The notes: a model not told the origin generated them from the sequence alone. 64,000 nucleotides of DNA from an uncultured Pseudomonadota bacterium (GCA_963843375.1 CAWJKT010000018.1:1-64000), one strand, 5' to 3'. Positions 44,900 through 61,006 are shown, counted from the first letter of the stretch. A program made the numbers and translations.

Positions 44900-45044
44900 G
44901 TTTTAATACTCCAGCTTTATTATTGATCAAAATAAATGATTCGAAAGGATTTATGACTAGGGGGTTACTTTAAAGGAGAGGGCGGCAGGGTGTAAAGGAT
45001 ACCGGAGAGTGGCCCGGGCGGACAGGCTATTGAAGGGGCAAAAT

Positions 45045-45080
45045 AAAAAAACGGATGGGTATTGGGCGGCCCATCCGTTT
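45045..45080 (-). terminator. Rho-independent terminator of the small secreted-protein gene
   Basis: AAACGGATGGG...CCCATCCGTTT with an A-run on the plus strand (U-tract on the minus strand). Confidence 0.75.
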
Positions 45081-45100
45081 GGAAAGAGAATAGTGTGGAA

Positions 45101-45298
45101 TTATTTAGTCGGACCGGTGCTGTTGGAGGCGGGACCGGTACTGTTAGTAGTGGGGCCCTTGGAACCCTTCTTGTGTCCGTGGTGGTGATTGCTGCATTTC
45201 TTTCCGCTGCAGGCAGGCGAGGTTCCGTCCGCCAAAGCAATACCTGAAACCGCAGCCGTGAAAAACATTGCCAAGCCGAGTGCTATTATTTTTTTCAT
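45101..45298 (-). CDS. Small secreted low-complexity protein
   Basis: Signal peptide MKKIIALGLAMFFTAAVSGIALA, RBS AAGGAG and its own terminator. Confidence 0.7.
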   Translation of the reverse strand: MKKIIALGLAMFFTAAVSGIALADGTSPACSGKKCSNHHHGHKKGSKGPTTNSTGPASNSTGPTK

Positions 45299-45496
45299 TT
45301 TTATCTCTCCTTTTGGAATTTAAGAGCTTCGCGATTCTCTTAAAATTTGGACGCGCGGTTTCCGAAAAAGTGTCGTCGTTTTAGCATGAATCAAATTAGA
45401 AATATCCCGTCTTTTATACCTATTTCTTGACCATCCATTTTTAAAATGGATATCATAGGAACCAGCCTCCCGTATAAACCGCTTGAAAGAGAAATT

Positions 45497-46237
45497 ATGG
45501 CCCTGCAACAAGAGCTGGAAAAAAGCGGTTCTTGGCTGTTCAGGTATCGATCTTTTGTCCCTCTTCTGGTCGTTCCTTTATGCGCCTTTTGTTTGTATTC
45601 TTCCAGCGATTTCACCCGCACTCATCTCAATAACGACGGATGGCAATTCGTTTGTTTGATCCTCTCTTTTATTGGTTTCGCGATTCGGGTCATCACCGTG
45701 GGGTATGCGGCCAGGGGAACTTCCGGGCGAAACACGACACGCCAAGTGGCGGATAGCTTGAACACGACTGGAATGTATTCCATTGTCCGAAATCCTTTGT
45801 ATATCGGGAATTATTTAATTCTCTTGGGTTTTTTGGGGGTTTTTCAAAATCTGTGGCTGGTGTTATTAATCACGGCTCTTTATCTTCTTTTTTATGAGCG
45901 GATCATCATGGCGGAGGAATTGTTCTTAAGGCAGCGTTTTGGCAAAACCTTTGAGAAATGGGCCTATAAAACCCCCGCCTTTTTCCCCCGGTATTCCCAA
46001 TGGAGTTCCTCCAAGAATTCTTTTTCCTGGAAAGAGGTTCTCTCTCGGGAATACAACGCTTTCTTCGTCATCACTACTTTTTTTTCAGTGGCCGATTTGA
46101 TTTTTGAATCCAGTTCCGTCCACCAATGGACCATGAAGCCGGTTTGGATGGGTATCTTCATCACAGGGGTTGTGGTACTAATCGGTTTGCGAACCTTGAA
46201 ACGCTCGACTCGGGCCCTGAAGGATGCGGGACGGTAA
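45497..46237 (+). CDS. Isoprenylcysteine carboxyl methyltransferase-family membrane protein, LmtA (lipid A phosphate methyltransferase)-like
   Basis: WLFRYRS, GTSGRNT..QVADSLNTTGMYS.VRNPLY.GN, YERII.AEE.FL..FG and TPAFFP. Confidence 0.8.
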   Translation: MALQQELEKSGSWLFRYRSFVPLLVVPLCAFCLYSSSDFTRTHLNNDGWQFVCLILSFIGFAIRVITVGYAARGTSGRNTTRQVADSLNTTGMYSIVRNPLYIGNYLILLGFLGVFQNLWLVLLITALYLLFYERIIMAEELFLRQRFGKTFEKWAYKTPAFFPRYSQWSSSKNSFSWKEVLSREYNAFFVITTFFSVADLIFESSSVHQWTMKPVWMGIFITGVVVLIGLRTLKRSTRALKDAGR

Positions 46238-47183: not shown

Positions 47184-47215
47184 CCGTCCACGCCGGGGGG
47201 ACCCGGTTTGGACGA
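47184..47215 (+). repeat. Palindromic array site 1 (two extra G, possibly a homopolymer error)
   Basis: CCGTCCACGCCGGGGG-GA-CCCGGTTTGGACGA. Confidence 0.8.
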
Positions 47216-47339
47216 TCTTTGACACGCCAAAAAGCCGTAAAAAGGCTATTTAAGCTGCCCACGATTGGGCCCTTGTCGCGAAATAAACAAACGATGTTCG
47301 ACACTATAAATTGAGGGAAAAATAATTTTGGGGTGTCTT

Positions 47340-48431
47340 ATGAAAAGTTATCTAGGTTTTTTACTCGCGTTTTCCGCCTTTGGGATACTTAGTTTTGAGG
47401 GCTGTACAAAGACGTCAACGCTGACCGAACCCGTAGCCAGCGCTCTCTCCTGGAAAACCATGGGAAGCCCTTTCAGCACCGGAACGGTCTACTGGAACTC
47501 GATTTACGTTACCAACGGCACGCCCTATATCGTTTTCGCCCAACCTTCAAGCTACGACCTTTCAGTCGACGAATACACGGGTGGCTCCTGGGTACCTGTG
47601 GGCAGCCCGTCTTTTAGCCCCGAGGCCAGTTTCCAAAATATCACGGTCTATAACGGTATGCCTTACGTGGGTTTTGAGCAGTCTACTAACGGCGGGGTGG
47701 CCTCGGTGATGGATTTAACGGGCGGAACGTGGAACTACGTAGGGGGTGGGAACCTAACAACGACCCAAACCGTTTATGATTCCATGGCCATCGGGTCCGA
47801 TGGAACGGTTTATATGGCCTTCGATGATTCCACGGGCAACACCGCAGTCATGAGCAACAGCGGGGGCACCTGGAAACAATTGGGTGGTGACCTTTCCACC
47901 GGCGGTTCCAACTATGTTTGGATGGCCATGAATGGCACCACGCCCTACGTGGCTTACCAAGACGAAGGCGCCGGAGGCAAGGCGACGGTCATGACCTGGA
48001 ACGGAAGTTCTTGGACTCCCGTGGGCACGCCGGGCATTTCCCAGGGCGAGGCTTATGACGTGGTCCTCAGCGTCAGCAACGGCACACCCTATATTTCCTA
48101 CCAGGACGGCAGCAACAACTTGGGCATCAGCGTGATGAAGTTCAACGGAAGTTCCTGGGCCTACTTGGGAGCACCGGGTTTTACTAATCAATGCGATTAT
48201 CAGTCGATTTTCGTGGACAACGGAGTTCCCTATCTTGCGTACGAGGACAAGATTGCCGGAAGCGGAAAGGGCATCGTGGTGAAGTATATCTTATCGGCCT
48301 GGGTGACCGTAGGAAGCGCGGACTTTACGCCTGAAGTGATGGAGGACGTTTCCCTCTACGTTGACAACGGCACGCCTTACGTAATCTACGACATTGGTCC
48401 TCCGGGTTTCCGGGTGATGGGCTACTACTAA
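47340..48431 (+). CDS. Lipoprotein with about 48-aa beta-propeller-like repeats
   Basis: Lipobox-like SFEGC and repeated NGTPY(V/I).(Y/F).D.....VM...G..W..VG...F units. Confidence 0.8.
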   Translation: MKSYLGFLLAFSAFGILSFEGCTKTSTLTEPVASALSWKTMGSPFSTGTVYWNSIYVTNGTPYIVFAQPSSYDLSVDEYTGGSWVPVGSPSFSPEASFQNITVYNGMPYVGFEQSTNGGVASVMDLTGGTWNYVGGGNLTTTQTVYDSMAIGSDGTVYMAFDDSTGNTAVMSNSGGTWKQLGGDLSTGGSNYVWMAMNGTTPYVAYQDEGAGGKATVMTWNGSSWTPVGTPGISQGEAYDVVLSVSNGTPYISYQDGSNNLGISVMKFNGSSWAYLGAPGFTNQCDYQSIFVDNGVPYLAYEDKIAGSGKGIVVKYILSAWVTVGSADFTPEVMEDVSLYVDNGTPYVIYDIGPPGFRVMGYY

Positions 48432-48490
48432 GAAAACAACGTAGCCAATTCTCCACTTTTGGCGATGATGCGGTTCCGCTATTCTTTTGA

Positions 48491-48520
48491 TTGTTCAAAA
48501 CGGGGGCCTAGAGTGGACAT
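48491..48520 (+). repeat. Palindromic array site 2
   Basis: TTGTTCAAAACGGG-GG-CCTAGAGTGGACAT, 59 bp after the stop at 48431. Confidence 0.7.
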
Positions 48521-48685
48521 GTAAAAAGAAAACTTTGATGCTTATTTTTTCTTCGAATCCACTAGACTTTCTCATGGTCAAAAATAACTTTTAAAGAGTC
48601 AAACAATTCCTGAATAATCCGTAGCATCTACAAACCCTAGCCTTTGTAGCGTCAGCGTTTTTAGCAGGCTTGGTGGCGGTAGGTT

Positions 48686-48968
48686 ATGCGGGTCTTTTTA
48701 AAATATTTGAGGGTTTTTATCACCAAATTTCAACGGCTCATCCCTTTGGATTTGGTTCTGGACCCCTCTTTGCCTGCTGGCTGGCTGGGCCATGGTTTAT
48801 TTTCTTGCGACGGATGGTGTTGACGGACTTTTGTCTATCAAAGTAGTGGAGAATTTGAGGAATGTTCGCCAGCAGGAGATCGAATTTTTCAAGCAGAACG
48901 GTCAAAAACAAATCACTCCCGACCAAGAGAGCCAGTTGACGGCAATGTTGCAAAGGAATCCGATCTAA
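48686..48968 (+). CDS. Probable small membrane protein, frameshifted and missed by the ORF track
   Basis: MRVFLKYLRVFITKF.. then, in a shifted frame, LWIWFWTPLCLLAGWAMVYFLATDGVDGLLSIKVVENLRNVRQQEIEFF..RNPI*. Confidence 0.4.
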
Positions 48969-49021
48969 ATAAAAATCATATTTAATGCCCGATCAGCGGC
49001 ATTTCCAACATTCCGATTCTT

Positions 49022-49051
49022 CCCTCCGTAACGGGAGCCCGTTGCGGACAA
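49022..49051 (+). repeat. Palindromic array site 3
   Basis: CCCTCCGTAACGGG-AG-CCCGTTGCGGACAA. Confidence 0.65.
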
Positions 49052-49397
49052 ATTTATTCGGGAAACCCCAACGGAATAATTCTAGGTTTAACCTTCCAGT
49101 TGTCGTTGGAACCGGTTCCATTTTAAAAAAATGAGCTCAGGTTTTTTTTACGGGATAAAAATTAAGATCGAAGTGGAAAGGAGTTGGCTGCAAAGGATAT
49201 GATGCCAAGTAATTTCTGGACGATTTCGAAGCCCTAATAAAAAAGAACCCCAGAGTACAGAATTTTCGTAGTAAGGTTTTTGACGCTGAAAAATAAATAA
49301 ATTTCTTTCTGGCTTCCCGCACTACTTGACCTCTGGGGTAAAAAAAATTTAATTTAGAACATCTTAAAACGTTATTTTAAAAGAAAGGTCCCCGCCC

Positions 49398-51647
49398 TTG
49401 AAGCCGATCCTTCCTTCCGGCCCCGCCGGAACCCTTTTAAGGGTCTTCTTTCTTCTCTTGTCCGGTCTTTGGGTTTCCCAAGCGGTGGCTCAGACCACCG
49501 CCACCTGCGCCCAGTACGATACCATCAGCACGACCGGTTCCCCCGCCTACAACGTTCAGACAAATTATTGGAACGAAGGCACTTGCGCGGGCACCCAATG
49601 CGTGACCATCAACGACGCCACCGGGGCGTTCGGTGTCACCGAGGCCACATTCAACTGCGGATCCACCGTGGCCAGCTATCCCTCCATTTATTATGGTTGC
49701 CACTTCGGCGATGCCAGCCCCGGCACCAATCTCCCCATGCTGGTCAGCAACCTTACCTGTGTCACCTCCAGTTGGAATTTCACCCCTCCTGCGGACACGA
49801 CGGGGGATTCCTTCGATATCGCCTATGACATCTGGTTCGCCCCCGCCAGCCAACCTACCTGCGCCGATGACAGTGGCGGTTACGACAATGGAGCGGAGCT
49901 GATGATTTGGTTGAACTATGTGGGCGACACGCCCCTGCCTACGGCTTCGGTGACCGTTGCCACTGGCATTTCCCTGGCCGGATATACATGGAACATCTAT
50001 GAAACACCTTCGTCTACCCTCGGGTGGACTTACATGTCCTACCAAATTACCCCTAACGTCACCTCGGTTAGCAACTTGGATCTCTTGGACTTCTTTAAGG
50101 ACGCCCTTTCCCGGGGTTTTATCGAAAATACTTGGTATCTCGCCGCCGTCGAGGCCGGCGACGAGTTGAGGACGGGGGGGGTGCCTTTTGTCAGCAACTC
50201 CTACTCGGTGGCCGTCAATAGCGGTTGCACCGTCGTACCCACCTCCACTCCCGGCAATACCTCCACGGCCACTCCGACCTTTACCTTCAGTTCCACTCCC
50301 TCCTCCACGGCCAGCGCCACGCCTACTTCAACGAAAACCGTCACCAGCACCCCAACAAACATTTTTACGAACAGCCCGACGAGTACCCCGACCTCCACAG
50401 TGACGTATAGTTTGACGCCCACTCCTTCACGCACTGCCAGTGCCACGCCGACCTCGACGAAAGCTCCCACCAGCACCTCAACCGCCACGCAGACGGATAG
50501 TCCGACTCAAACTTCGACGGATTCGACGACCCCGACCGATACCAACACCGCGACTGTTACGCCGTCCCTCACCGCTTCGGCTTCACCGACGCCAACTGCC
50601 ACCAGTTCGCCCACTACAACTTCCACCGATAGCCCGACCAATACGTCCACGAACACGGCAACCTCAACACCTACTTTCACTCCGACGAATAGTCCCGTGG
50701 CCACACCGACTCATACCATGACTAGCACGCCCACTCCGACTCCGCCTACGACCTATACCGCTACGAATACACCCGTCTATACCGAAGCCAACACGGCGAC
50801 CAGCACGGCAACAACGACTGCCACCAATACGGGCACGAATACGGCAACGTATTCCGCGACAACAAGCCCCACCAAAACATCTACGGCGACCGCTACCAAC
50901 TCTCAAACCAATATATCGACCGCCACCCCGACCAACACAGCCACCAATAGTCTGACGGCCACCTCTACGAACAGTCCTACTTCAACCTCGACCCTTACCC
51001 CCACCGTCACCCCAACCCTTACGAACACCGAAACCAACAGCCCGACCCAAACCCCAAGTAGCACGGAGACCCTTCCTCCCACCAACACCCTTACCAATAG
51101 CCCGACGGGCACTTTTACGTATTCGATGACCGCTTCGCCGTCCTTCACGGCTTCGCCTACGCAAACGGCTACCACGACGAACACGCCAACCGCGACAGCT
51201 TCGGCCACGCCATTCTTGACTCTCGCTGCGTCCAATAGCTCCACCTCCACGGCCGTCCCCACTTCCACTAATAGTCCTACGCTCACCAACTCACCGACGG
51301 TGACGAACAACGCTACAGTTTCGACCACACCCACAAAATCCCCGACCCAAGTCTCGACGGGGGTTGTCATAGGAATTCCTTATCCCAATCCCGTGAAGGG
51401 TTCGGGCCCAGTGACCCTCCCGCTACAATTACCCCCCGGCTCCACGTTCGAATGGAGCGTTTTTACGACAGCCTTCCGCAAGGTCCTGGATATTCCCAAT
51501 CCCATTTTGGGCGATAGCGCGGTCCTAGTCTGGAACTTGGACGATGCTTGGGGAAAACCGGTGGCCAGCGGTCTTTACTACCTGAGGGTCCAGGTCGCCG
51601 GTCCGGTCAAAACCTCCAAAATTCTGAAGGTTCTGGTGATCCGCTAA
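49398..51647 (+). CDS. Secreted glycoside hydrolase family 12 (endoglucanase-like) with Thr-rich stalk and FlgD-Ig/T9SS-CTD-like C-terminus
   Basis: YNVQTNYW, SYPSIYYGCHFG, DIAYDIWF, GAELMIWLNY (nucleophile Glu) and WYL.AVEAGDE (acid/base Glu). The C-terminus reads PYPNP..VFT.AFRKV..WN..D.WGKPVASGLYY..KILKVLVIR. Confidence 0.88.
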   Translation: MKPILPSGPAGTLLRVFFLLLSGLWVSQAVAQTTATCAQYDTISTTGSPAYNVQTNYWNEGTCAGTQCVTINDATGAFGVTEATFNCGSTVASYPSIYYGCHFGDASPGTNLPMLVSNLTCVTSSWNFTPPADTTGDSFDIAYDIWFAPASQPTCADDSGGYDNGAELMIWLNYVGDTPLPTASVTVATGISLAGYTWNIYETPSSTLGWTYMSYQITPNVTSVSNLDLLDFFKDALSRGFIENTWYLAAVEAGDELRTGGVPFVSNSYSVAVNSGCTVVPTSTPGNTSTATPTFTFSSTPSSTASATPTSTKTVTSTPTNIFTNSPTSTPTSTVTYSLTPTPSRTASATPTSTKAPTSTSTATQTDSPTQTSTDSTTPTDTNTATVTPSLTASASPTPTATSSPTTTSTDSPTNTSTNTATSTPTFTPTNSPVATPTHTMTSTPTPTPPTTYTATNTPVYTEANTATSTATTTATNTGTNTATYSATTSPTKTSTATATNSQTNISTATPTNTATNSLTATSTNSPTSTSTLTPTVTPTLTNTETNSPTQTPSSTETLPPTNTLTNSPTGTFTYSMTASPSFTASPTQTATTTNTPTATASATPFLTLAASNSSTSTAVPTSTNSPTLTNSPTVTNNATVSTTPTKSPTQVSTGVVIGIPYPNPVKGSGPVTLPLQLPPGSTFEWSVFTTAFRKVLDIPNPILGDSAVLVWNLDDAWGKPVASGLYYLRVQVAGPVKTSKILKVLVIR

Positions 51648-51710
51648 AGCAGTCCGCTGAAATGAAAATTTTTATCTGAAATAAAGTTCATTAAAAATCT
51701 TGAAAAGTGT

Positions 51711-51740
51711 TTGTCCACGACGGAGACTCAGATTGGATGA
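51711..51740 (+). repeat. Palindromic array site 4
   Basis: TTGTCCACGACGGA-GA-CTCAGATTGGATGA, 63 bp after the stop at 51647. Confidence 0.85.
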
Positions 51741-52376
51741 AAGTTTTCGGTAATTTGGATTTGAAAAGACGGTTATCTCGGGTTTGGATGTCAGGATAAA
51801 AAATTATGGTAATTGTCTCTTACTTCTTTTGGCGGCGGACCTAGGTTACCCGTCACATTTAACCGTCCAGGAATCGATATCCGAGTCTCCCTAAGAAGTC
51901 AAATGAACCACGATTGGAAGGAGATTCGTCAAATTTGGGTCAATTTTGTCCGGGGTTTGAATTATTTTTGAAATTTTCGACTTAATCCATCAGACTTTTT
52001 CCTTGGCATTAAATATGCCCTGTAAAAGTGCCAATGTTAAAAATAGGCATTGGGTGAAAGAACTTTTATGATAACGGGGGTTCCAGTATTTCTGGGGCTA
52101 AACTATTTAAAAATCAATTTTTGACCTGATTAAATTTCAGATATTTATTTATGGAGTCTATGGGTGCCTTGTTCGCGGATTCTATTACGTGGTGGTGACC
52201 ACCCCGGAGAGAAGGCGTTCCATCGGGAAACTGCTGATTTTGAGATGAATCCCTAATAATAGACATAGATCGACTTCTTGAATTGGCTTGCGAGTAGACA
52301 AATATATTTCTTTAGTAAATATTTTATTTGAAATTAGTCAGGGCTGATTAAAAATCAAGCCAAATGAATATTTTTG

Positions 52377-52406
52377 TTGTACACGATGGGGACCCGTAAT
52401 GGACAA
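52377..52406 (+). repeat. Palindromic array site 5
   Basis: TTGTACACGATGGG-GA-CCCGTAATGGACAA, 30 bp before the start at 52437. Confidence 0.9.
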
Positions 52407-52436
52407 TCAAACCTTTAAAATGAAAGAACGGTTTTC

Positions 52437-52934
52437 GTGAATTATCTAACCCTCTTTGACATAACAACCGTAGGGTATAAGTCCCTGCCTTCCTTAGGAC
52501 CCGGCTTTATCATTTTCTGTGTTGGGTTGCTGGTTTTTTTCGCCAATGAAAAGTTAAAAAATAGGATTTTTGGACCGTTTTGGACTAAGTCAAGGTTAAG
52601 GATCTTTTCAATCATTTATACCGGTTTTGCGGCTCTTTTTTCTATTTCCGGATTAGTACATACCTACTCTGATTATTCCAGACTGAAAAGCGCATTTTTG
52701 AACAATCAGTGTGAAATAGTCGAGGGTGTGGTCACTCAATTCGTACCCATGCCCGTTACAGGCCATGCCGATGAAAGTTTTACCGTAAACAATCATAGTT
52801 TTAGGTATTCAGATTACGAATTAACGGCGGGATTCAATAATACACAATCCCATGGTGGGCCGATCAAAGCAGGCTTACAAGTTCGTATTCATTGTCTAGG
52901 GAACGAAATCGCAAAATTGGAAATCGCCAGATAA
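52437..52934 (+). CDS. Hypothetical membrane protein (two transmembrane helices plus a small beta domain)
   Basis: 165-aa AT-rich ORF filling the interval between sites 5 and 6. Confidence 0.75.
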   Translation: MNYLTLFDITTVGYKSLPSLGPGFIIFCVGLLVFFANEKLKNRIFGPFWTKSRLRIFSIIYTGFAALFSISGLVHTYSDYSRLKSAFLNNQCEIVEGVVTQFVPMPVTGHADESFTVNNHSFRYSDYELTAGFNNTQSHGGPIKAGLQVRIHCLGNEIAKLEIAR

Positions 52935-52963
52935 AAGAAAACGTGAACAAACGGTTTTCGGGA

Positions 52964-52993
52964 TTGTCCACGGCGGGGACGCAGAAGGAACAA
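52964..52993 (+). repeat. Palindromic array site 6
   Basis: TTGTCCACGGCGGG-GA-CGCAGAAGGAACAA. Confidence 0.88.
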
Positions 52994-53033
52994 TTGCAAA
53001 GAGATTAAATGAGGTTCTTGGGAGGGAGTATTT

Positions 53034-53861
53034 ATGATTTTTTTGAAGTTTCCATTTCTTTGCCTAATTGCGGCATTGGGTATTTATTTTGTAAATTTTA
53101 AATATGGAATTTCACAAACAAATCCAACCCCAGAAATGAACGTTCCAATCACGATTCTGCAAAAACCTGTCCTGGTACGATTGAAACAAACAAAAGATGA
53201 TGTTTTCTTAATCAGTGTTGATTTCGGAAAAGACCATTTTTCTTTCAAGTCCGAAGGCTATGACAATTCCTTGCCCGAATATTTAAAAACGTTCGGGTGG
53301 AAAGAAAATTATTTATTTGTTCATCAGTGGAATGGTTGTGGGAGTTGCCATAAAGGGGTTGTGGATCGGGTTTATAAAATCATAAACGGTCATCTGGTTG
53401 AATTGGGTGAAATACGGTCGCCCGAAGATGCGAAATCCCCTGGGGAAGAATATAACAATGGTTTATTTGAAGATTTGTATAACAAGTTTGAGGGCACTGA
53501 TTTAACAGCGCATGTACATAGTCCCGATATGTTATTAGCGTTGAGGGAAAGTGAGGGAAAGTTGCTTGTCGATTTGCGTGAAACATGGTTAAAAAATGAA
53601 ACTGAGTATTTAGAAACGAACGGCAAACTCGAAGCGTTTTCCACCCCGACTGGCAAAGAAAACGATCGACAAGAATCACCACTTTGGATGATTTTGGGAA
53701 ACGGTGTTGTGGCCAAATATTGCAAAAAGAGCAAAGAGTTAAATAAAACAATGCAACAGGCCAAAAGGCTTTTAACGAACGAAGATATTAAAAAAATTAG
53801 ATCTGTTTTGAATGAAGTTATTCCTGGAGAATTAAGTCCTAGAGAAGATGAAATGCCCTAA
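53034..53861 (+). CDS. Hypothetical secreted protein
   Basis: 275-aa AT-rich ORF with an N-terminal hydrophobic segment and RBS GGAG, filling the interval between sites 6 and 7. Confidence 0.75.
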   Translation: MIFLKFPFLCLIAALGIYFVNFKYGISQTNPTPEMNVPITILQKPVLVRLKQTKDDVFLISVDFGKDHFSFKSEGYDNSLPEYLKTFGWKENYLFVHQWNGCGSCHKGVVDRVYKIINGHLVELGEIRSPEDAKSPGEEYNNGLFEDLYNKFEGTDLTAHVHSPDMLLALRESEGKLLVDLRETWLKNETEYLETNGKLEAFSTPTGKENDRQESPLWMILGNGVVAKYCKKSKELNKTMQQAKRLLTNEDIKKIRSVLNEVIPGELSPREDEMP

Positions 53862-53868
53862 TGGGTGG

Positions 53869-53898
53869 TTGTCCACGGCGGGGAACCGTCGTGGACAG
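53869..53898 (+). repeat. Palindromic array site 7
   Basis: TTGTCCACGGCGGG-GA-ACCGTCGTGGACAG, 7 bp after the stop at 53861. Confidence 0.92.
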
Positions 53899-54090
53899 GT
53901 AAAGTAAGATGATATTATGTGACTGCCACAAATCGACCTAATTTTTTGTATTAAAATTGTTTTTAGAGGTATGCCGGTATTTGTGCGATTTAAGGATAAA
54001 ACAAGAAGTGATAATAATTTGTTAAATTTGTCCGAAGGGTCAAAAAGTCATTGGACTTTCTTGAAGAATTATTAGAATGTAAATATATGG

Positions 54091-57000
54091 TTGTCAGATA
54101 TTTTTTTGGGGTCAATAGTGTTTTATAAAGTAGGTATATCTTTCTTTAAAAAAAATATTTTTTTCCTTTCGTTTGCTTGTGCTATTTGGCTGTTTGGGCA
54201 TGACGCCGCAGCTCAAACTTTCCCGCTACCCATCCCAACCGTTTGTATTTGCTTGGACAGCGGGGATGGGGGGGATTTGATTGTCTCGGATGTGGCCAAT
54301 CCCCAGGATGTGGGTTCCATCGCACCCGTGGTTAGCGTGAACCCCTATCCAGGTTGGTTTCCTGCCTGCGGAAATTCCAACTTTATTTCGGATAACACTG
54401 CGGGGTTAGTTACGCCTGCGACAAGTGAAGACACCAACCAAATTGTTGTCCAAAGAACACTCAACCTTAGTTCCTTAACTGCCTCTCAACTGGCCCAAGT
54501 GACTTTCAGCCTTAGCGTCAAAGCAGACGACGCCATAACGGTTATCGTGAATAACAATTCCGGCAGTCCGGCATTGAGCTGCGGGGGGGTGAGTTTACCG
54601 GCTTGTTTTCTCAACGGTTGCGACACGCTAACGGGCACCAATAGCGGCGCTTTTCAAAACCAATTCACTGCCGGCTTTAACACTGTCGATTTCGTCATCC
54701 AGGATATTTACGGCGGCCATATCGCGGGGGATTTTGAGCTTTGCGCCTGTTATCCGGCGCCTTCGCCCACGGCCACCTTAACCCCCACCGAAACCTCAAC
54801 CAACACCCAAACGAATACCGACACCTTGACCCCAACCAGTTCCACAACCTACACTCCCAGCCCGACGCCGACACTCACTCCCACTCCGACCGCAACCAAC
54901 ACCCAAACGAATACCGACACCTTGACACCGACCAGTTCCGCCACCTACACACCCAGCCTGACGCCGACCATCACTCTTACCCTTACCCCCACCGATACAG
55001 CCACGAATACGCCCACCTCAACTCCGCCGGGTTGCTATAGCTTGTCGCAAGTCCTGCCTATCAATAAATCCGTGGCGCCCGCAAGGATCCAGGGACCTTC
55101 GGACGTGGCGGTAGACCCCACAACGGGGGACTTATTCACCGTGGGTTCAGATAATGCGAAAGCCGGATTTTCTAACCAGATCGTGGTGAAGTCCGACCCT
55201 GCGGGGAACTTTATCATGTCCTGGGCCGTTCCCGGCGTGGCGATGGCGGCCCATCTAAGCACGGATTTGAATGGAAACGTTTATGTGGGATACCAAACGA
55301 CGGCTGGGCGGAATTTCGTCCAAGAATACAGTTCCGTTGGAACGCCCATCGGCGGTCCTCTGGGCCCCTTCGGCACGATCGATCTCTTTATGGCGAACGA
55401 CCCAGTTACCGGAGACCTCTATGTGCTGGATGGTTACCTGGTCTATCGTTATGGCCCGGGCAATGTATCCTTGGGCCCACCCTTCACCCTTTCCCGGACG
55501 TTATTCCGTTCGGGAGCAACCACCGGCATCGCCATCGACGGATCCCAGAACATCTATATCGGGGACAACGGCACGCGAAGCGTGGTGGAGATCAGCGAAA
55601 CGACAGGCCTCCTTGAAAAAACCATTTCCTTGCCGGTCGGTAGCGGAGTAGAGGACCTAGCTTGGGATCAGGCTACGAACCAACTTATCGTTGGTTATAT
55701 CAACCATTTCCAGGCGATCGACAGCAATGGAAACTTGGCGGGCACCTTTGCGGGTTCCGGTCAATTCACCGATTTGACGGGAGTGGGAGTTGACCCCAAC
55801 GGCTGTGTCCTGGCGACCGTCGACACGAGTAGGGACGTAGAACGTTGGTGCCCTTGCTACCTCCCAACGAAAACTCCAACCGATTCGCCTACCGCCACTC
55901 CAACCCTAACTCCGGAAGCCACCGCCTGTTTCAAATACGTTTCGGTCCTGGGGGCCTTTGGCGGCGGGGCGGCTCCGGGAGACCTAGCACTGCCGTACAC
56001 CGACACGGTGGACGGATCGGGCAATGTTTTTGTGCTTAACGGTTCGGCGGGGAATAAAACCCTTATCACTAAATACAATTCCGCGGGGAAATATGTCCTT
56101 CAATGGACCGTCCCATTCAATGACGGACCGGGGGGCTTCATCGCCGCCAACAGCAAGGGCGATGTTTACCTAGTCTATCCAACAGGAGATGGCGTTTACT
56201 CGATCCAAGAATACGGCCCAACCGGTATGCCCCTCGGGGTCCCCTTCGGCCCCCTTGACAACGTAGCGGGTATCGCTATCGGCCCGGGCGATCGGCTGTA
56301 TGTCCGAACCTTTCCCCCCACGAACGAAGGTCAAGGAGATGTTTGGGTCTACAACTCCTCCAACGTCCTCTTGCCCGACAGTTCATTTACTTACCCCGGC
56401 CCAGGCGGCGGATTCGGGATCACCGTGGATCTTTCAGGTAATGTTTATCTTGCAGGTATTGAGAATGGAATGCGGGAATACAATGCCGGCGGGCAATTGA
56501 TCAATCAATTCAAGGCGAATTCGGCCGTGCAAATCGCCTTTGACAATGTGACAAATGAGGTCCTGTCCACGGACGGCTCCAAGGTTTATATCTATAGCCC
56601 GGGCGGGCTATCCTTGGGATCTTTCGGAGTTGCCGGGACGGGCCCCGGAAAGTTTATTTATGCCGACGCGGTCGCTGTGGACCAGTCCACTGGCTGCGCC
56701 TATGTAGTGGATCCGGACCAGCAAGTGGTGGAGAAGTGGTGCCCGTGCGGATCTGGCGGCACCTCAACAAACACCGCTACCAATTCGCCCACCTTCACTG
56801 TGAGCCAAACAAGGACGTCTACGGGCACTTCGACAGTTACTTTCACCTTAACCTTGACAGGGACCTTTACAGCCACCCCAACTCCCACCCCTTCACCGAT
56901 CCCTTCCAACACTCCAATAAGCTCGGCTACCTCCACGGCATTCTCGACGGCCACCGGTTCGCCCACTCCTAGCCCCACTCCGACGGAAACTCTGAGTCCC

Positions 57001-58458
57001 ACGGGAACGGAGACCCCCACCCCGACAGAGACCAATACCGCCACGAATACGGCGACCCTTTCCCCAACCCTTAGCCTTACCCCAACGGAATCCAATACGC
57101 AAACAAATTCAGCCACCCTTACCCCTACTTTTAGCGTTACCCCGACGGCTTCCCCGACAACCACCGGTTCGGTCACCTCCACGGCAACCTTTACCCCAAC
57201 CTTAAGCTCCACTTTAACGGCAACCTTGACTGCGACCACTACTTCCACTTTCACCATAACTTCAACTGCGGCTTGCAAATGTGTCGGGTCATTTACTTCC
57301 TCCCGGGACGTGAACAATATCCTCTTTCCGGCTCCAGGAGAATTTTGTTATTTCGTCAATCTGGGTATAACTTTCTCAACATGTTCGGGAAATATCCCCG
57401 TTTCTTTCTATGCCACCAGTACGAACGGAGACATATATACTCCCAGCACTATATCGATCACCCTTTCCTCGGCCAATAATTTTACCTTCGAAGAACCGGT
57501 CACCTTTTGCGGACCACTGGTCCCGGGAAATGTCATCACCATATTCGCCGCCTTTCCGGGAACTTGTTATGAGACCACCAATTTTGGAACCGAAACCGTC
57601 GTCGCCCCTACTCCTACTCCAACGATTACTTCCACCCCCAGCTGTAGCTGTTCTTCCTTTAACTTTAACTCTTGCGCGACGAGTGCAACCTCGATCGGTT
57701 CACAGTCGGGCTGCTACAAGGTTTTAGTGAATTATCAATGGACAAGTTGCGCATTGCTCACCGGGTTCCCGGTTTCTTTCTTTGTGACCTCGGCCAGCGG
57801 CGATTACACCATCAGTCCGGATTCGGTTACTTTCGGCGCCTGTGGGGCTGTGCCCTGTGCGGGGGCGGTGGCGGATTTCCCCTTCACCATTTGTGGCCCG
57901 TCGTTAAGCGGAAATCCAGTGACCATCAATTTCCTCAATCCCAGCGGAACCCTTTGCGACGGACCGGGTCAATGCGGACCTATCTTGTTGCCCACTTTTA
58001 CCACCACTCCCACTGCCACGAAATTGCCGACTAACTCGCCAACCCCGACACCGACCTTTACACCCACCAGTACACCTATCGCGATGGCCATGGCTTCCCG
58101 GTCAGACTTCATACAAGCCTCAAGGTTGAATCCGAACTCCACCGGGAGCCCCTCCAACACTTCCGGGTTGTTGGGGAATGTGGCGGCCCTGCCCAACCTT
58201 TCAAGAGGGTTCGAGCCGATCAAGTTCGAGGTTATTCTGGGACATCCGGCCCAGTTAACTCTTATCATCTATAGTTTGTCTGGGGAGAACCTTTATTCGA
58301 CAGTTTGGGAAGGTAACGCTGGAGTGAACCAATGGGTTTGGAATCTGGAAAACCGCTTTTCCCAACAAGTGGCCAGTGGACTTTATATTTATTTGATCGA
58401 GGCCAACGACGGGCAAATACGAGAATTGGAAACGGGAAAACTGGTTATCCTTCACTAG
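54091..58458 (+). CDS. Large secreted multidomain protein: two NHL/beta-propeller-like regions, Cys-rich modules, Thr-rich linkers, FlgD-Ig/T9SS-CTD-like C-terminus (start approximate)
   Basis: [22 protein letters not shown] and FG..G.GPG.F.Y..AVAVD repeats, with T-x linkers. The C-terminus reads LPN...[35 protein letters not shown]. Confidence 0.82.
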
Positions 58459-58557
58459 AATGTTTAATGCAGGTTTTCTAATCTTCGGCTTACTGGAAAC
58501 AAAATCATTTTTGAAAGGACAGGAACGCACTTGGGTTTATTTGAGTAAGTAAATAAG

Positions 58558-58587
58558 TTATCCACGATGGGGAGCCGGATTGGACAA
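58558..58587 (+). repeat. Palindromic array site 8
   Basis: TTATCCACGATGGG-GA-GCCGGATTGGACAA. Confidence 0.9.
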
Positions 58588-58608
58588 GTTTCTTCGAGGG
58601 AGTATTAA

Positions 58609-58707
58609 ATGAAACGGTGTATTTTGACCGGTAGCCGGGTTCCGGTAAGGCGTCGATACTCCACGCCCTGAAGGCGGAAGGCTATCCGGCCATCAAGGAG
58701 GCATTAG
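58609..58707 (+). pseudogene. 5' remnant of a P-loop (AAA_28-like) ATPase/kinase gene
   Basis: RBS GAGGGAG and ATG. Restoring one base gives MKRCILTGxPGSGKASILHALKAEGYPAIKEA (Walker-A-like), and the resemblance then ends. Confidence 0.5.
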
Positions 58708-59385
58708 GTGAAGCGTTGTTTCCTTTTGCTGTTCCTGGCCTGTTTTCAGGTGTCCCTCGCCTGGGGGCAGGCAGAGTATTCCCTCCCCAATTCCGGGCAA
58801 ATCCAGGTAGGTTCGAATTATTTTGGACAATCGTTGGGCCTCTCCTATTCCCGGGATTTGGCCGGGCCCCTTTGGGCCGATTTCGCCCTGGAGACCCAAA
58901 GCATTTCTTTCCAGTCGGTCGCTGGCCAGACTTTTTTCGTGTTTAACAACAATTCCTACACTAATTTCAATATCGGCCTGGACGTCCATGATTTCGTCAC
59001 AATGGACCTATCCTTCCACCGCTCTGATAAATGAGTTTTCCGTATCCTCAATTCGCTGGCGGTCGGCATCACCCATTTTGACATGACCTTCCACCTTTCC
59101 TTCAACGGGGCGGACCCTTCCGATACTTTCCAGGGGCAGAGGGACATTTCCGCTTTCGCGCTTTATACGGACCTTCACCTGCTCGATTTTTACCCGCCTC
59201 ACGACAAACTCTTCTTTTCTCTGGGAATCAAGGGCAATACCGCCTTCCTTTCCAGCCCGCAAACGGTGAACGCCACGGATGGTTCGGGGGGAACCGCCTT
59301 TATTTCCTATTCCAGCGGGAACGGAGGGGCGATCATGTTTCCGGATTTGGAATTGTACCTAGGCCTTGGCTATGGTTTCGAATGA
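58708..59385 (+). pseudogene. Secreted beta-barrel-like protein with an in-frame TGA at 59032-59034
   Basis: Signal peptide. ORFs 58708-59034 and 59083-59385 are in the same frame, and the protein ends in LYLGLGYGFE. Confidence 0.55.
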
Positions 59386-59414
59386 TCGGGAGTAAATACG
59401 GAAAGCGGAGGGGG

Positions 59415-59444
59415 CTGTCCACGGCGGGGACCCGGATTGTACAA
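59415..59444 (+). repeat. Palindromic array site 9
   Basis: CTGTCCACGGCGGG-GA-CCCGGATTGTACAA. Confidence 0.92.
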
Positions 59445-59463
59445 AATTAACCGGAGATAAGAT

Positions 59464-59706
59464 TTGAAAATATTTAATAAATCCGTTCCTGTTCCAGTCT
59501 TAATAATTTTTTTAGGGTGGTTGGCTTTAATCTTTCAAGTATTTTTTTTCACGTTGGGCATGAGAATCGTTACCGATTGGGAAATTCGTTTTCTTTTATC
59601 CATGGGCATTGACCCGAAAGTTTTTTGGTGGATTTTCATTTTTTTAGTTGTGGTAATAAGTCCATTCTTTCTGAAGTATTACAACGATATCGAGAAAAAG
59701 AAATAG
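59464..59706 (+). CDS. Small two-transmembrane hypothetical protein
   Basis: 80-aa AT-rich ORF with a GGAG RBS, filling the interval between sites 9 and 10. Confidence 0.65.
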   Translation: MKIFNKSVPVPVLIIFLGWLALIFQVFFFTLGMRIVTDWEIRFLLSMGIDPKVFWWIFIFLVVVISPFFLKYYNDIEKKK

Positions 59707-59732
59707 TTGAGGTTTGGGGTGAAAGGTGGAGA

Positions 59733-59762
59733 TTGTTCGCGACGGGGACCCGGATTGGACAG
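59733..59762 (+). repeat. Palindromic array site 10
   Basis: TTGTTCGCGACGGG-GA-CCCGGATTGGACAG. Confidence 0.9.
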
Positions 59763-59867
59763 CGTGCCAGGATCAAGGATGCAGCAGCCAGCAGGTGCGG
59801 TTCGATATGAACCAAGTCCTGACGGGGTAACCGCCCGAGGGCCCCGAAGTCAACCTCCGTGGCAAGG
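59762..59867 (+). mobile_element. Possible 5' end (domain I start) of a group II intron, truncated at the adapter
   Basis: Begins GCGTGCCAGG (GUGYG-like). Contains CAGGTGC[GGTTC-GATAT-GAACC]AAGTCCTG, resembling the GGTGNAAGTCC stem, and a CGGGG..CCCCG stem followed by AAGT. Confidence 0.4.
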
Positions 59868-59927
59868 AGCAATATCGTTTTTTTTTTTTTTTTTTTTTTT
59901 TTTGTACACGTTCAGCTTCGTATTGCT
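59868..59927. other. Oxford Nanopore ligation-adapter-like sequence; chimeric junction (artefact)
   Basis: AGCAATATCG, then T26, then GTACACGTTCAGCTTCGTATTGCT. The known adapter is (T)n..GTACTTCGTTCAGTTACGTATTGCT, and its reverse complement begins AGCAATACG. GC content and codon style change abruptly here. Confidence 0.9.
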
Positions 59928-60754: not shown

Positions 60755-61006
60755 CGCCCCACCTGCCCCACCTGCCGCGGAAGGTGGGGCGCGGAAAAAG
60801 GATAGACGAAACAACGATGTGCCCCACCTGCCCCACCTGCCCCACCTGTTTCCTCGCGCGTGCGCGCGAGCGTGCGCCCCAGGTAGGACTACCTTTTCCA
60901 CTTTTTCTCAAAATAGGTGGGGCAGGTGGGGCAGGTGGGGCAACGCCTTTTCCGTCAACGGGTTGCACGCGCCCCACCTCAAACGGAAGGTGGGGCAAGG
61001 TGGGGC
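60755..61006. repeat. Iteron-like 9-bp CCCCACCTG direct and inverted repeats (putative element replication origin)
   Basis: Two copies at 60756, three at 60821, three inverted at 60915-60941, and further copies at 60782 and 60970-61005. They lie immediately after the primase/helicase gene. Confidence 0.7.

Follow-up and report, generated by a model that had tools for sequence, protein, structure and literature searches.

A conserved 30-bp site bounds apparently mobile gene cassettes in a family of candidate phylum FCPU426 and adjoins the gene of a small serine recombinase

Introduction

The closest described systems to the arrays reported here are integrons and the integrase-less attC clusters known as CALINs. 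An attC site is an imperfect palindrome of 57-141 bp with RYYYAAC/GTTRRRY boxes, conserved by structure and not by sequence; crossover in integrons falls at the 3′ end of the site, and the whole site moves with the upstream gene. Large serine recombinases carry a C-terminal zinc ribbon with an embedded coiled coil, total about 450-700 aa and have distinct attP and attB sites of 40-50 bp, and Ccr-type systems stack elements in tandem with repeated sites between them, some of the elements being recombinase-less. Integrase-less packets are also known from islands stacked at tRNA genes and from composite SCC islands. The dif modules of Acinetobacter plasmids have recognisable XerC/XerD sites in alternating orientation and are thought to be moved by XerC/XerD; dif sites have one arm that is better conserved. 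Gene modules flanked by Xer sites are described in PMC7399989.

The present arrays resemble integrons and CALINs in being long, in having compact, mostly co-oriented and mostly single-gene cassettes, each followed by a (here putative) recombination site, and in occurring as several recombinase-less arrays per genome. As in integrons, the cargo is rich in toxin-antitoxin pairs, acetyltransferases and unknowns, content is hypervariable among close relatives, and group II introns home to the sites. Unlike integrons, the arrays lack an IntI tyrosine recombinase; at 30 bp, conserved in sequence and with non-covarying arms, the site differs from attC; cassettes meet in the left-to-central part of the site instead of at its 3′ end; and the candidate enzyme is a serine recombinase whose gene, convergent with the array, occupies the downstream end. 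That enzyme shares its catalytic and recombinase domains with large serine recombinases (Bxb1, phiC31, A118/LI; Ccr of SCCmec), as the site shares a non-palindromic central dinucleotide, but at about half the length it has neither zinc ribbon nor coiled coil, the sites it presumably uses are uniform and 30 bp long, and there are single-gene units at many loci in place of a few large islands at one gene. Tandem units parted by repeated sites, recombinase-less ones included, recall Ccr-type systems. The dif modules (PMC7399989) are similar in their small size, their short inverted-repeat core sites of about 28-30 bp and the lack of a recombinase gene inside, whereas the sites here are direct repeats with no relation to a known dif, form long chromosomal arrays and are linked to a serine recombinase gene. 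REP/RAYT systems likewise have short conserved extragenic palindromes, frequently past stop codons, whereas the sites here are clustered in accessory arrays and bound exchangeable cassettes.

Results

Site copies within the window array

The 30-bp repeat of the window (the whole stretch of 64,000 nucleotides that was analysed) is genuine. A profile trained on 63 genome copies was run across the whole 4.05-Mb genome, and its E-values are listed below for each copy. The initial annotation had claimed ten copies: by this genome-trained profile seven are solid and two are weak (47184 and 48491), and 49022, with no match at E<=10, is not supported as a site. The literal pattern first proposed, at up to 3 mismatches, recovers three of the ten (58558, 59415 and 59733) versus 0 in 100 shuffles, and the consensus behind it turned out to be a minority variant, the true consensus being TTGTCCACGACGGGGACCCGTCGTGGACAA. 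The commonest form, whose right arm reads GTCGTGGACAA, is palindromic almost throughout, around the asymmetric centre GGGGACCC.

47184..47213, + strand: site, very weak and decayed, with an extra centre base (sequence; profile E=2.3)
48491..48520, + strand: site, weak (profile E=0.015)
49022..49051, + strand: third copy of the initial annotation, unsupported as a site (sequence; no profile match at E<=10)
51711..51740, + strand: site, degenerate (profile E=4e-4)
52377..52406, + strand: site (profile E=1e-7)
52964..52993, + strand: site, left arm and centre good, variant right arm (…AGAAGGAACAA) (sequence; profile E=0.05, left arm and centre only)
53869..53898, + strand: site (profile E=4e-8)
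58558..58587, + strand: site, GGATTGG-type right arm (literal pattern; profile E=1e-6)
59415..59444, + strand: site (literal pattern; profile E=6e-7)
59733..59762, + strand: site, last visible copy (literal pattern; profile E=7e-6)

Several features noted at first sight held. Every profile match in the window is on the + strand, so the copies are co-oriented as described; seven copies do lie downstream of ORFs, 8-100 bp past a + strand stop (ORF table); and composition differs between intervals, GC per kb ranging from 0.38 to 0.57 along the array. The profile gives zero matches in window 18.8-47.1 kb, and the housekeeping stretch is thus free of copies, again as stated.

Genes, flank and end of the array

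The genes and other features around the sites are as follows.

43106..46237, both strands: conserved flank preceding the array, with an ABC transporter (43106-44899, - strand), a small ORF and a PEMT-like methyltransferase (45446-46237, + strand) (Pfam)
47328..48431, + strand: 367-aa ORF (ORF table)
49398..51647, + strand: 749-aa Thr/Pro-rich ORF with 12-nt periodic repeats (ORF table; no Pfam family)
52437..52934, + strand: cassette ORF, 165 aa (ORF table; no Pfam family)
53034..53861, + strand: cassette ORF, 275 aa, with its stop 8 bp ahead of the next site (ORF table)
54091..58458, + strand: 1455-aa Thr/Pro-rich repeat protein, occupying one whole interval (ORF table, repeat analysis)
58708..59385, + strand: interval holding a pair of small ORFs, of 108 aa and 100 aa (ORF table)
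59464..59706, + strand: cassette ORF, 80 aa (ORF table)
59763..59865, + strand: group II intron 5′ end, directly behind a site (134 bp 97.8% identical to G000 C9:252484-252617)
59866..59927, no strand: assembly chimera junction of 12 letters, a T26 run and 24 adapter-like letters (sequence)

The flank at 43106..46237 is syntenic with, and 79% identical to, C4:43931-49952 of the sister species G001; synteny ends at about 46204, and the array behind these core genes consists of unrelated cassettes, which agrees with the variability between relatives expected at the outset. Labels given earlier to the cassettes (GH12, NHL, barrel etc.) found no Pfam support at E<=0.001 among the window cassette ORFs. 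The sole Pfam match of the ORF at 47328..48431 is a weak beta-propeller under the curated cut-off; this ORF is possibly an old cassette. The end of the segment at 59867, remarked on earlier, is real: it is an assembly join, where the T26 run and the 24 letters, which we take to be sequencing adapter, lead into DNA of 65% GC from another organism. An integrase at window 60917-62467 sits in this chimeric foreign DNA and was rejected as the array's enzyme.

Distribution and conservation of the site

In the genome of the window (G000; sites counted at E<=1e-3), 62 of 70 sites have a neighbour site within 6 kb, versus 0.19 expected under uniform spread. The clustered sites form about ten co-oriented clusters, and 49 of 52 adjacent site pairs are co-oriented. 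The layout is one of arrays of accessory genes and not REP-like scatter by core genes, in keeping with the array first proposed. Within the bacterial family, which belongs to candidate phylum FCPU426, 27 of 31 genomes have the site core; none of 15 genomes from other families of that phylum has it, and a reversed-pattern control gave 0-1 matches per genome. The host is an uncultured soil bacterium. Arrays lie at many loci, some within integrative or conjugative elements and one within a split GH31 gene, and the largest have up to 14 or more sites.

Conservation extends over 30 bp, at 90% or more at most positions, and stops at the flanks; the unit contains no AAC/GTT boxes. The complementary pairs per site number 11.50, versus 11.56 +/- 0.06 when arms are shuffled between sites; the arms vary independently of each other, and hairpin pairing is therefore not under selection. 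Judged from these alignments, the conserved feature is the sequence of the site and not its structure. The claim that the sites are not attC is thus well founded in their length, their conserved sequence, the lack of arm covariation and an exchange point away from the 3′ end; an integron was rejected, with no IntI and no attC found. Matches to PF00589 adjoin no G000 or G001 array, and no tyrosine recombinase was detected with the queries used in 545 kb around metagenome sites. Against TIGR02249 (cut-off 265 bits), integrases of about 370 aa and the Xer-type protein reach 52-78 bits.

A group II intron 5′ end lies directly behind 9 of 301 unique sites, and a second intron type is located in the site centre. 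The group II introns have a reverse transcriptase and maturase, with no endonuclease domain detected, and the C9 copy matches RF02003 (L011:14556-14692, 61.6 bits) and RF00029 (L011:15146-15296, 45.1 bits) in Rfam. Insertion at a constant position relative to the cassette site is shared with the group IIC-attC introns of integrons (PMC3001079); the target here, however, is the 30-bp site and not attC.

Cassettes and their point of exchange

A co-oriented ORF ends just 5′ of 213 of the 301 sites (median 14 nt from stop to site), and one begins shortly 3′ of 231 of them (median 42 nt). The median cassette length is 779 bp, usually with one gene, and the unit runs from right half-site through leader (median about 40 nt), gene and a spacer of about 14 nt to the next left half-site. 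Cargo includes toxin-antitoxin pairs (PIN, HigB, MazF, YafQ/RelB, BrnT, HEPN/NT), GNAT acetyltransferases, small redox enzymes and many ORFs without a family. As in integrons, these are compact, co-oriented arrays of exchangeable cassettes.

Among 167 unique site-to-site intervals, 27 pairs show end-to-end homology and differ in length by a few nt at most; both neighbours are unrelated in 24 of these pairs, and the other 3 are at locus edges. One toxin-antitoxin cassette is present in two G001 arrays. The mobility first suggested is borne out by such identical or near-identical cassettes in different arrays and genomes, with breakpoints within sites; as read from assembled sequences, the intervals behave as discrete mobile cassettes. 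No circle, deletion or rearranged array was seen in assembled contigs of public runs, a kind of sequence in which such events do not show. Where seven pairs share the left flank only (at least 97% identity), the first site mismatch falls at 17, 20, 20, 21 and 29, or there is none (twice), and six cassette pairs that share the right flank only have their last mismatch at 0, 0, 1, 1, 1 and 2. Each arm tracks its own flank in identity, the left arm the upstream and the right arm the downstream flank. The breakpoints place the exchange somewhere within positions 3-16 of 30, without narrowing it to GA itself.

A small serine recombinase at array ends

New in this analysis is a conserved serine recombinase of about 280 aa (275-289 aa), termed SR-s here, that is docked to array-terminal sites. 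In G000 its gene is at C9:137163-138005, on a contig other than the window's; it is the only candidate physically tied to G000 sites, which fits the earlier placing of the recombinase outside the visible segment. The Pfam domains of SR-s are Resolvase (PF00239, 13-159) and Recombinase (PF07508, 187-273) and no other, and the protein ends after the latter, with no zinc ribbon (no PF13408 match) and no coiled coil. We know of no characterised precedent for a serine recombinase with catalytic and recombinase domains alone. The group comprises 19 protein clusters, with lengths of 275-283 aa and identities of 68-98%, the motif YVRVSS being invariant in 19 sequences; outside it identity falls to 61% or less, and relatives there are longer and carry zinc ribbons (PF13408). 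The dN/dS of SR-s is 0.09-0.10. Its best NCBIfam matches are large serine recombinases, and the best Foldseek matches of a fold model of moderate quality (mean pLDDT 66) are large serine integrases (E 5e-11 to 1e-6).

At all nine short-form loci with a 3′ end (five intact), an opposite-strand site lies 4-55 bp past the SR-s stop, the 3′ end of the gene being convergent with the array and adjoining its last site; DNA upstream of SR-s is unrelated from genome to genome. None of four full-length relatives (510-570 aa) has a site within 1.5 kb. Intact SR-s is found in 5 of the 31 family genomes (G000, G001, G022, G042, G045), partial copies keeping the 3′ end in G042 (two), G018 and one MAG (L062), and C-terminal remnants adjoin sites inside four more arrays (L243, L208, L163, L125). 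Genomes with intact SR-s rank 2nd, 3rd, 4th, 5th and 12th of 31 by site count and the top-ranked genome carries a partial copy, a rank association that is not a set of independent observations because the compared genomes are related. G022 has SR-s yet only 8 cores, and neither intact SR-s nor any PF00239 match was found in the site-rich G023 (26 cores, 89% complete), G005 (22, 98%), G021 (21, 90%) and G010 (19, 99%). Most arrays, the window's included, have no recombinase gene nearby. Across 545 kb of metagenome DNA around sites, no more than two distinct ORFs for serine recombinases turned up: a fragment of SR-s (L314) and, likewise terminally placed, an enzyme of 229 aa from another serine-recombinase family. 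All in all, the sites are probably worked by the small serine recombinase.

Discussion

The distribution and variability of the arrays, the breakpoints and the non-attC sites support the overall reading of the initial annotation, an integron-analogous array of mobile cassettes. We lean, with a little more belief than doubt, towards the window array being one of about ten such arrays with a double-stranded 30-bp site, for which SR-s is the likely enzyme. This reading builds on the sites, arrays, discrete cassettes, breakpoints and physical linkage of SR-s to the site that are observed. The site would be a double-stranded recombination site with two inverted arms of 11-14 bp around the asymmetric centre GGGGACCC, whose central dinucleotide GA would give polarity and so keep the sites of an array co-oriented. 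Cassettes would be excised and inserted by conservative site-specific recombination between two sites, with the exchange point in the left-to-central portion. SR-s, its gene facing into the array from the downstream end, may derive from large serine integrases, having kept the catalytic and “recombinase” DNA-binding domains and lost the zinc ribbon and coiled coil. By inference, it would bind the site and cut it at GA, and coiled-coil loss would remove directionality. Arrays with no adjoining SR-s, the window's among them, would be served in trans or be fossil.

The same arrays could instead be worked in trans by the host's single Xer-type tyrosine recombinase, in the manner suggested for dif modules, the site then being read as 11-6-11 or 11-8-11, a proposal we think unlikely although it is the strongest of the rivals. 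An orthologue of the Xer-type gene (350-380 aa; G000 C10:182366-183469) is present at 57-77% identity in all family genomes examined and aligns end to end with XerC, XerD and XerA models, and the XerC/D-like pair of about 300 aa found in other families is absent from this family and its sister family, the only two that have sites. The conserved left arm and variable inner right arm recall dif sites, and a trans-acting housekeeping enzyme would account for arrays without a nearby recombinase gene. However, the clade-level co-occurrence of Xer state and sites is a single evolutionary event, and the gene never adjoins an array, has no site-like sequence near it and occurs just as regularly where a genome has few sites or none (G024, G017, G003). 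A single-copy dif-like version of the site was not found at up to 3 mismatches in G017, G019 and G024, the sites are direct repeats and do not alternate as in dif modules, and the docking of SR-s at terminal sites is not accounted for. Slightly less probable again is tandem accretion, in which circles carrying SR-s or another integrase with a site and cargo would integrate serially and then lose the recombinase gene. The SR-s remnants next to sites within arrays, the partial copies in G042 and G018, the unrelated small serine recombinase at the terminal position of one metagenome contig and the scatter of arrays over many loci, integrative and conjugative elements and the split GH31 gene included, would all fit such a history. 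Yet intact SR-s is always terminal, no second site was found within 1.5-7 kb past its 5′ end, most cassettes consist of one gene of about 0.8 kb and bear no recombinase remnant, and whole cassettes recur alone in unrelated contexts.

Two further proposals dispense with a dedicated enzyme or with recombination altogether. One takes the sites for short repeats of a passive or selfish kind, resembling REPs or carried about by another transposase, and the shuffling for a by-product of homologous recombination. This seems to us improbable: the sites are indeed short, palindromic, intergenic and often just past stop codons, like REPs, and most arrays have no recombinase gene nearby, but the sites are strongly clustered instead of dispersed, uniformly oriented inside arrays, conserved over 30 bp in 15 of 17 genera and specifically linked to SR-s. 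Among the 13 recent flank-sharing pairs, moreover, no breakpoint falls in the right arm (left-sharing) or past position 2 (right-sharing). REP/RAYT in particular was rejected on the clustering and on the lack of any match to the Y1 transposase (PF01797) in G000, G018 (60 cores), G020 and G023. We give very little credence to an RNA-level element (a terminator, processing site or stabilising hairpin) whose recurrence reflects expression needs. It would suit the position of the sites, a median of 14 nt past stops and co-oriented with most genes, the 12-14 bp stem that can form, and the insertion beside the site of group II introns that favour hairpins. The arms, however, show no compensatory changes, about a quarter of sites have a 3-nt mismatch block in the stem, the sequence 3′ of the site is A-rich and not T-rich, and site orientation stays constant where genes are reversed; conservation is of sequence and not structure, homology breaks inside the element, and no Rfam family matches at gathering thresholds.

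If the favoured reading of mobile cassettes moved at a double-stranded site, likely by SR-s, is true, the arrays of this family would represent a second, independently evolved kind of gene-capture system, beside integrons.

The repeat array in the window

The window is C18:1-64000 of the source genome (G000), a bin of 4.05 Mb in 32 contigs that is 80% complete. Reading the ten window coordinates proposed in the initial annotation together with a scan of the genome gave the site consensus TTGTCCACGACGGGGACCCGTCGTGGACAA, in which two 14-nt arms are complementary apart from the central dinucleotide GA. The consensus first written for the repeat recovers just three of the ten copies at up to three mismatches (0 in 100 shuffles) and was therefore replaced by a profile built from 63 copies, which was used to score the window. 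On this profile the copies at 51711, 52377, 53869, 58558, 59415 and 59733 are solid, as is the left half of the copy at 52964; those at 48491 (E=0.015) and 47184 (E=2.3) are weak, and the one at 49022 has no profile support. The other features ascribed to the array held up well: every supported copy is on the plus strand, the profile scan found no copy within 18.8-47.1 kb (the housekeeping stretch), seven copies sit 8-100 bp downstream of a plus-strand ORF, and GC per kb shifts between 0.38 and 0.57 along the array. The gene labels are unconfirmed, because no window cassette ORF matched a Pfam family at E<=0.001. The repeat array itself is confirmed, and its interpretation as an integron-analogous cassette array is supported. 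With sites that are degenerate and two genes that are Thr/Pro-rich and very long, it looks like an older, decaying array.

Some stretches of the window have unusual composition. At 50200-51300 and 54750-58100, cassette ORFs of 749 aa and 1455 aa consist mostly of 12-nt periodic ACC/CCN repeats, of families common to both, that encode Thr/Pro-rich linkers. At 9000-16000, strand composition is extreme (GC skew to -0.51, AT skew to +0.66, GC to 0.62), which suggests that the minus strand encodes a very large gene of low complexity.

The array ends in an intron fragment and an assembly junction:

59763-59865: 5′ end of a group II intron, directly after a site; 103 bases before the join
59866-59927: assembly junction; 12 letters, then a T26 run, then 24 adapter-like letters
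62502-62588: tRNA in the foreign DNA beyond the junction

The intron fragment is 97.8% identical to a copy at C9:252484-252617 of the same genome, which carries Rfam RF02003 and RF00029. The 24 letters at the junction resemble what we take to be a nanopore adapter. From the join onward the DNA has 65% GC, through the window to 64000 and on to C18:79338 (locus L014), and its cargo is the tRNA, a DUF5906 protein, two integrases, an AAA_25 protein and a phage minor tail protein. Contig C18 is an assembly chimera whose 65% GC part comes from another organism and looks like a prophage or integrative element.

Distribution of the sites

The profile finds 70 sites in the whole of G000 at E<=1e-3. Of these, 62 have a neighbour within 6 kb (0.19 expected under uniform spread); the sites form ten clusters of 2-14 on contigs C6, C9, C10 and C18, and 49 of 52 adjacent pairs are co-oriented. 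The 15-nt conserved core of the site occurs in 27 of the 31 genomes compared from the same family of candidate phylum FCPU426 (15 of 17 genera, 0-60 copies per genome) and in the single sister-family genome (G025), and in none of 15 genomes that represent eight further families of the phylum; the reversed pattern, run as a control, gave 0-1 matches per genome. Site-bearing stretches number at least 165 in public genome contigs and at least 157 in metagenome contigs, and the record titles of those listed are mostly candidate division FCPU426, with a few other labels. A single dif-like copy was sought in site-poor genomes: G003 and G025 hold mini-arrays instead, and G017, G019 and G024 hold degenerate half-matches only.

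Some arrays have informative surroundings. In G025 (C27:14504-19659, L207:4504-9659), a mini-array of three sites and a truncated DDE transposase lies inside a GH31 glycosidase gene, apparently splitting it into N-terminal and C-terminal parts. In the sister species G001, two arrays (C2:1183061-1186712 and C4:132072-135500; L015, L017, L018) adjoin conjugation genes, with TraG/TrwB-type coupling proteins, ArdC, RadC, UmuDC and a 367-aa integrase as neighbours, so some arrays may ride on integrative conjugative elements.

Group II introns at the sites

Two types of group II intron are placed precisely with respect to the site:

First type, directly after a complete site: window 59763-59865; G000 C9:252515-253300 (L011:14515-15296); L051, L083, L096, L102, L103, L153, L180, L182
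Second type, within the site, with a 458-aa or 436-aa reverse transcriptase/maturase: G000 C9:135150-137129 (L010:7150-9129); L022:8541-10500; L093, L094

The first follows 9 of 301 unique sites, with GTGGACAT before the insertion point and CGTGCCAG after it; its C9 copy is about 0.8 kb and lacks an ORF, and in other copies there is a gene for a reverse transcriptase that includes a maturase domain. The second inserts after GGGGACCC, dividing the left half of the site from the right half. When 791 ORFs from the 165 genome loci listed were clustered, the commonest recurrent neighbour was a group II intron reverse transcriptase, not a recombinase.

Cassette anatomy and mobility

Anatomy was read from 301 unique flanked sites among the matches listed, with ORFs called simply as the longest frame. 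For 213 sites an ORF of 60 codons or more in the same orientation ends just upstream (median stop-to-site distance 14 nt), a co-oriented ORF begins within 120 nt downstream of 231 (median 42 nt), and 13 have an abutting ORF on the opposite strand instead. From site to site, the 167 unique intervals measure 779 bp at the median (481 and 2194 bp at the 10th and 90th percentiles). The cassettes of G000, G001 and other loci carry many toxin-antitoxin genes (PIN, PhdYeFM, HigB, MazF, YafQ/RelB, BrnT/BrnA, HEPN/nucleotidyltransferase), GNAT acetyltransferases, short-chain dehydrogenases, aldo-keto reductases, glyoxalases, DoxX, NHL and LRR proteins, and numerous ORFs of no family.

Among the 167 intervals there are 27 pairs of whole-interval homologues, matching in length within a few nt; in 24 of them the DNA beyond both bounding sites is unrelated, and the other three lie at a locus edge. 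A two-gene toxin-antitoxin cassette is present in two G001 arrays with homology running from one site to the next. Pairs of the 301 sites share the left flank only in 23 cases, the right only in 36 and both in 2. At the window array itself, the core genes that precede it (ABC transporter, PEMT-like) keep their order in G001, at 79% identity; this synteny ends at about 46.2 kb, where G001 has a different array. These comparisons indicate that the intervals are mobile units, and it is very probable that the clusters are cassette arrays bounded by a site other than attC. Contigs of public runs yielded few joints, with sides under 30 letters that match repeats or other loci, their loose ends at sites are repeat-induced contig breaks, and no recombination event was seen in them directly.

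Larger and smaller segments also meet the sites. A 12.2-kb block with acetate kinase, phosphoketolase and an F-type ATPase operon with an AtpQ-like gene (G000 C9:114036-126248, G001 C1:382841-395053) is 98.9% identical between the two species; set against the roughly 79% of core genes, this points to recent transfer. Its right end is at site position 20 (of 30) and its left end is away from any site, so it was rejected as a clean cassette. At G000 C9:256440-256568, 268901-268994 and 269987-270080, an insert of 40-70 bp breaks up three sites: conserved sequence ending CTCAGGGCAAATKATAGG comes after a left half ending GGGGACCC, and a new left arm, TCGTCCAATCT, comes next. The insert may be a mini-cassette that has no ORF, or a scar left by some other element.

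Exchange point and nature of the site

Sites that share a flank also tend to share part of the site. Pairs sharing the left flank are identical at 10.39 of 11 left-arm and 8.35 of 11 right-arm positions, pairs sharing the right flank at 9.92 and 9.72, and random pairs at 9.48 and 7.96. Breakpoints were mapped in pairs with flank identity of at least 97%, excluding five with an intron as right flank. In seven left-sharing pairs the first mismatch falls at position 17, 20, 20, 21 or 29, or is absent (twice); in six right-sharing cassette pairs the last mismatch falls at 0, 0, 1, 1, 1 and 2. Three further pairs share the second intron type after position 19, with last mismatches at 11, 20 and 20. 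These first and last mismatches place the exchange between positions 3 and 16, a range compatible with the central GA (positions 15-16) without proving it.

The palindrome could in principle act as a folded strand or as a pair of binding sites for protein. In 102 distinct sites from G000 and G001 loci, complementary pairs per site average 11.50, versus 11.56 +/- 0.06 after the right arms were shuffled 1000 times; 840 of the 1000 shuffles reach the observed value, and the pairing fraction at each of the 14 positions matches the shuffle. Conservation is 75-98% per position in the left arm and centre and about 62-67% at right-arm positions 20-23, and in roughly one in four G000 sites a CGAC-type left arm is paired with a right arm of GGAT type, leaving three stem mismatches. 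By this test the site does not behave like an RNA or single-stranded DNA hairpin kept by selection, and in this it departs from attC; it behaves as would be expected of two protein-binding half-sites re-assorted by recombination. No Rfam family fell on the sites at gathering thresholds. A REP/RAYT reading was rejected, and Y1 transposases do not track the sites.

A candidate recombinase

Several recombinases were set aside as the enzyme of the arrays. The tyrosine integrase at 60917-62467 of the window lies past the chimera, in 65% GC DNA with a tRNA and phage-like genes, and is irrelevant to the array because the contig is chimeric before it. No tyrosine recombinase is found at the ends of any array of G000 or G001. 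Six integrase paralogues of about 370 aa in G000, and their relatives, lie kilobases from sites and never at array ends, and occur also in site-poor G003; they are island-type, with an excisionase-like gene beside some. An Xer-type protein of 350-380 aa (G000 C10:182366-183469, orthologues L189-L204) is single-copy in every family genome examined, those with few or no sites included; the family seems to be without the usual XerC/XerD pair of about 300 aa seen in the phylum's other families. No dif-like site was found beside the Xer-type gene; TGGC-N-TTGCA recurs downstream in 8 of 15 loci and is presumably a sigma-54-like promoter. Separately, G000 C8:95063-98359 holds three adjoining tyrosine recombinase genes (431, 340 and 423 aa) of recombinase-in-trio type, and G013 has a similar trio.

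When 545 kb around metagenome sites was compared with all recombinases at hand, only serine-recombinase ORFs emerged, and the search therefore turned to a candidate here called SR-s. The initial annotation had placed the recombinase outside the visible segment, and this candidate indeed lies on another contig:

G000 C9:137163-138005: SR-s, candidate serine recombinase, 281 aa

Pfam assigns residues 13-159 of SR-s to Resolvase and residues 187-273 to a complete Recombinase domain, and finds no other domain. Its best NCBIfam matches are Ccr-type recombinases, far under cut-off, and its AlphaFold model (mean pLDDT 66) best matches the Bxb1, phiC31 and LI-type integrases. In a set of 5.8 billion proteins it belongs to a tight clade of 19 clusters (275-283 aa, 68-98% identity), and the next relatives, at no more than 61% identity, are longer and have a zinc ribbon. 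Orthologues show a dN/dS of 0.09-0.10, and the short form is therefore a functional gene rather than a degraded one.

Intact SR-s is found in 5 of the 31 family genomes (G000, G001, G022, G042 and G045), and partial copies that keep the 3′ end in G042 (two), G018 and one MAG (L062 = L314). All nine SR-s loci with a 3′ end have an opposite-strand site 4-55 bp past the stop, in the same layout: the array, its last site, then SR-s pointing back, so that the array runs away from the gene. In G046 the distance between a short fragment and a site is 224 bp, and remnants (the last 33-57 codons) abut sites within four more arrays; no site was found within 1.5 kb of four relatives of 510-570 aa. Between the G000, G001 and G022 loci, homology runs from the SR-s ribosome-binding site to the site, and beyond the 5′ end the three have nothing in common and no second site within 1.5-7 kb. 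By core count the genomes with intact SR-s rank 2nd (49), 3rd (35), 4th (32), 5th (29) and 12th (8) of 31, and the highest count (60) belongs to a genome with a partial copy, ranks that are not independent observations because the genomes are related.

The main evidence against SR-s is that a serine-recombinase family profile found none in the site-rich genomes G005, G010, G021 and G023, in bins 89-99% complete; it is weak, because repeat-rich arrays break assemblies, but real. Also counted against it is a metagenome contig (L209:11023-11712) on which a 229-aa resolvase/invertase-type serine recombinase, unrelated to SR-s outside the catalytic domain, takes the same convergent position, 55 bp beyond the final site in an array of six. 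If the arrays are real, SR-s is more likely than not their enzyme, and the best explanation of all the evidence, slightly favoured overall, is that these are cassette arrays worked by SR-s.

Proposed mechanism and relation to known systems

SR-s dimers would bind the two arms of a site through the recombinase domain. Large serine integrases use their zinc-ribbon domain to read the outer portion of sites 40-50 bp long, and a site of 30 bp fits SR-s because it has no such domain. Cleavage would occur at the central GA with a 2-nt stagger, followed by subunit rotation and religation; because GA is non-palindromic it would forbid antiparallel joining and so keep the arrays co-oriented. In large serine integrases a coiled coil imposes attP x attB directionality, and since SR-s lacks it, any two sites could recombine, with circles excised and re-inserted. 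Any array that lacks SR-s would be a fossil or depend on recombinase supplied in trans.

Put together, and tentatively, these elements could form a "serine integron" of independent origin. Its enzyme, descended from the large serine integrases but half their length and without their zinc-ribbon/coiled-coil module, would freely excise and insert single-gene cassettes at a universal 30-bp site. The platform (recombinase gene and primary site) would sit at the array's downstream end, with the GA crossover dinucleotide setting polarity. Common to a whole family of the uncultured phylum FCPU426, the system would seed recombinase-less arrays throughout the chromosome and on conjugative elements, and would have its own site-homing group II introns. 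In its working the system resembles integrons and CALINs, but it fails on all three molecular features that define the integron; the site-homing introns would have been acquired in parallel with integrons. Ccr/SCC and other serine-integrase elements have the enzyme superfamily and the idea of a tandem stack in common with these arrays, whereas protein architecture, site design and unit size differ. The dif modules have similarly short core-type sites, but their orientation rule is not followed here. At the level of abstracts, the literature gave no account of the site, of FCPU426 cassette arrays or of serine-recombinase cassette arrays.

To our knowledge, no well-understood natural system other than the integron accumulates and shuffles single genes as cassettes. 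Integrons rely on an unusual tyrosine recombinase whose substrates are attC sites folded from a single strand. The arrays described here show that an integron-like genome architecture can also rest on a simple double-stranded site of 30 bp; this architecture comprises compact cassettes without promoters, cargo rich in toxin-antitoxin genes, hypervariable arrays, clusters that lack a recombinase, and parasitic introns. If the SR-s linkage holds, the same architecture is made by a different recombinase superfamily. SR-s would then be a naturally minimal serine recombinase (about 280 aa, a 30-bp site, probably bidirectional) and a possible tool for genome engineering; gene capture would have evolved convergently, and a large mobile-gene pool of soil bacteria would have been missed by standard integron finders.
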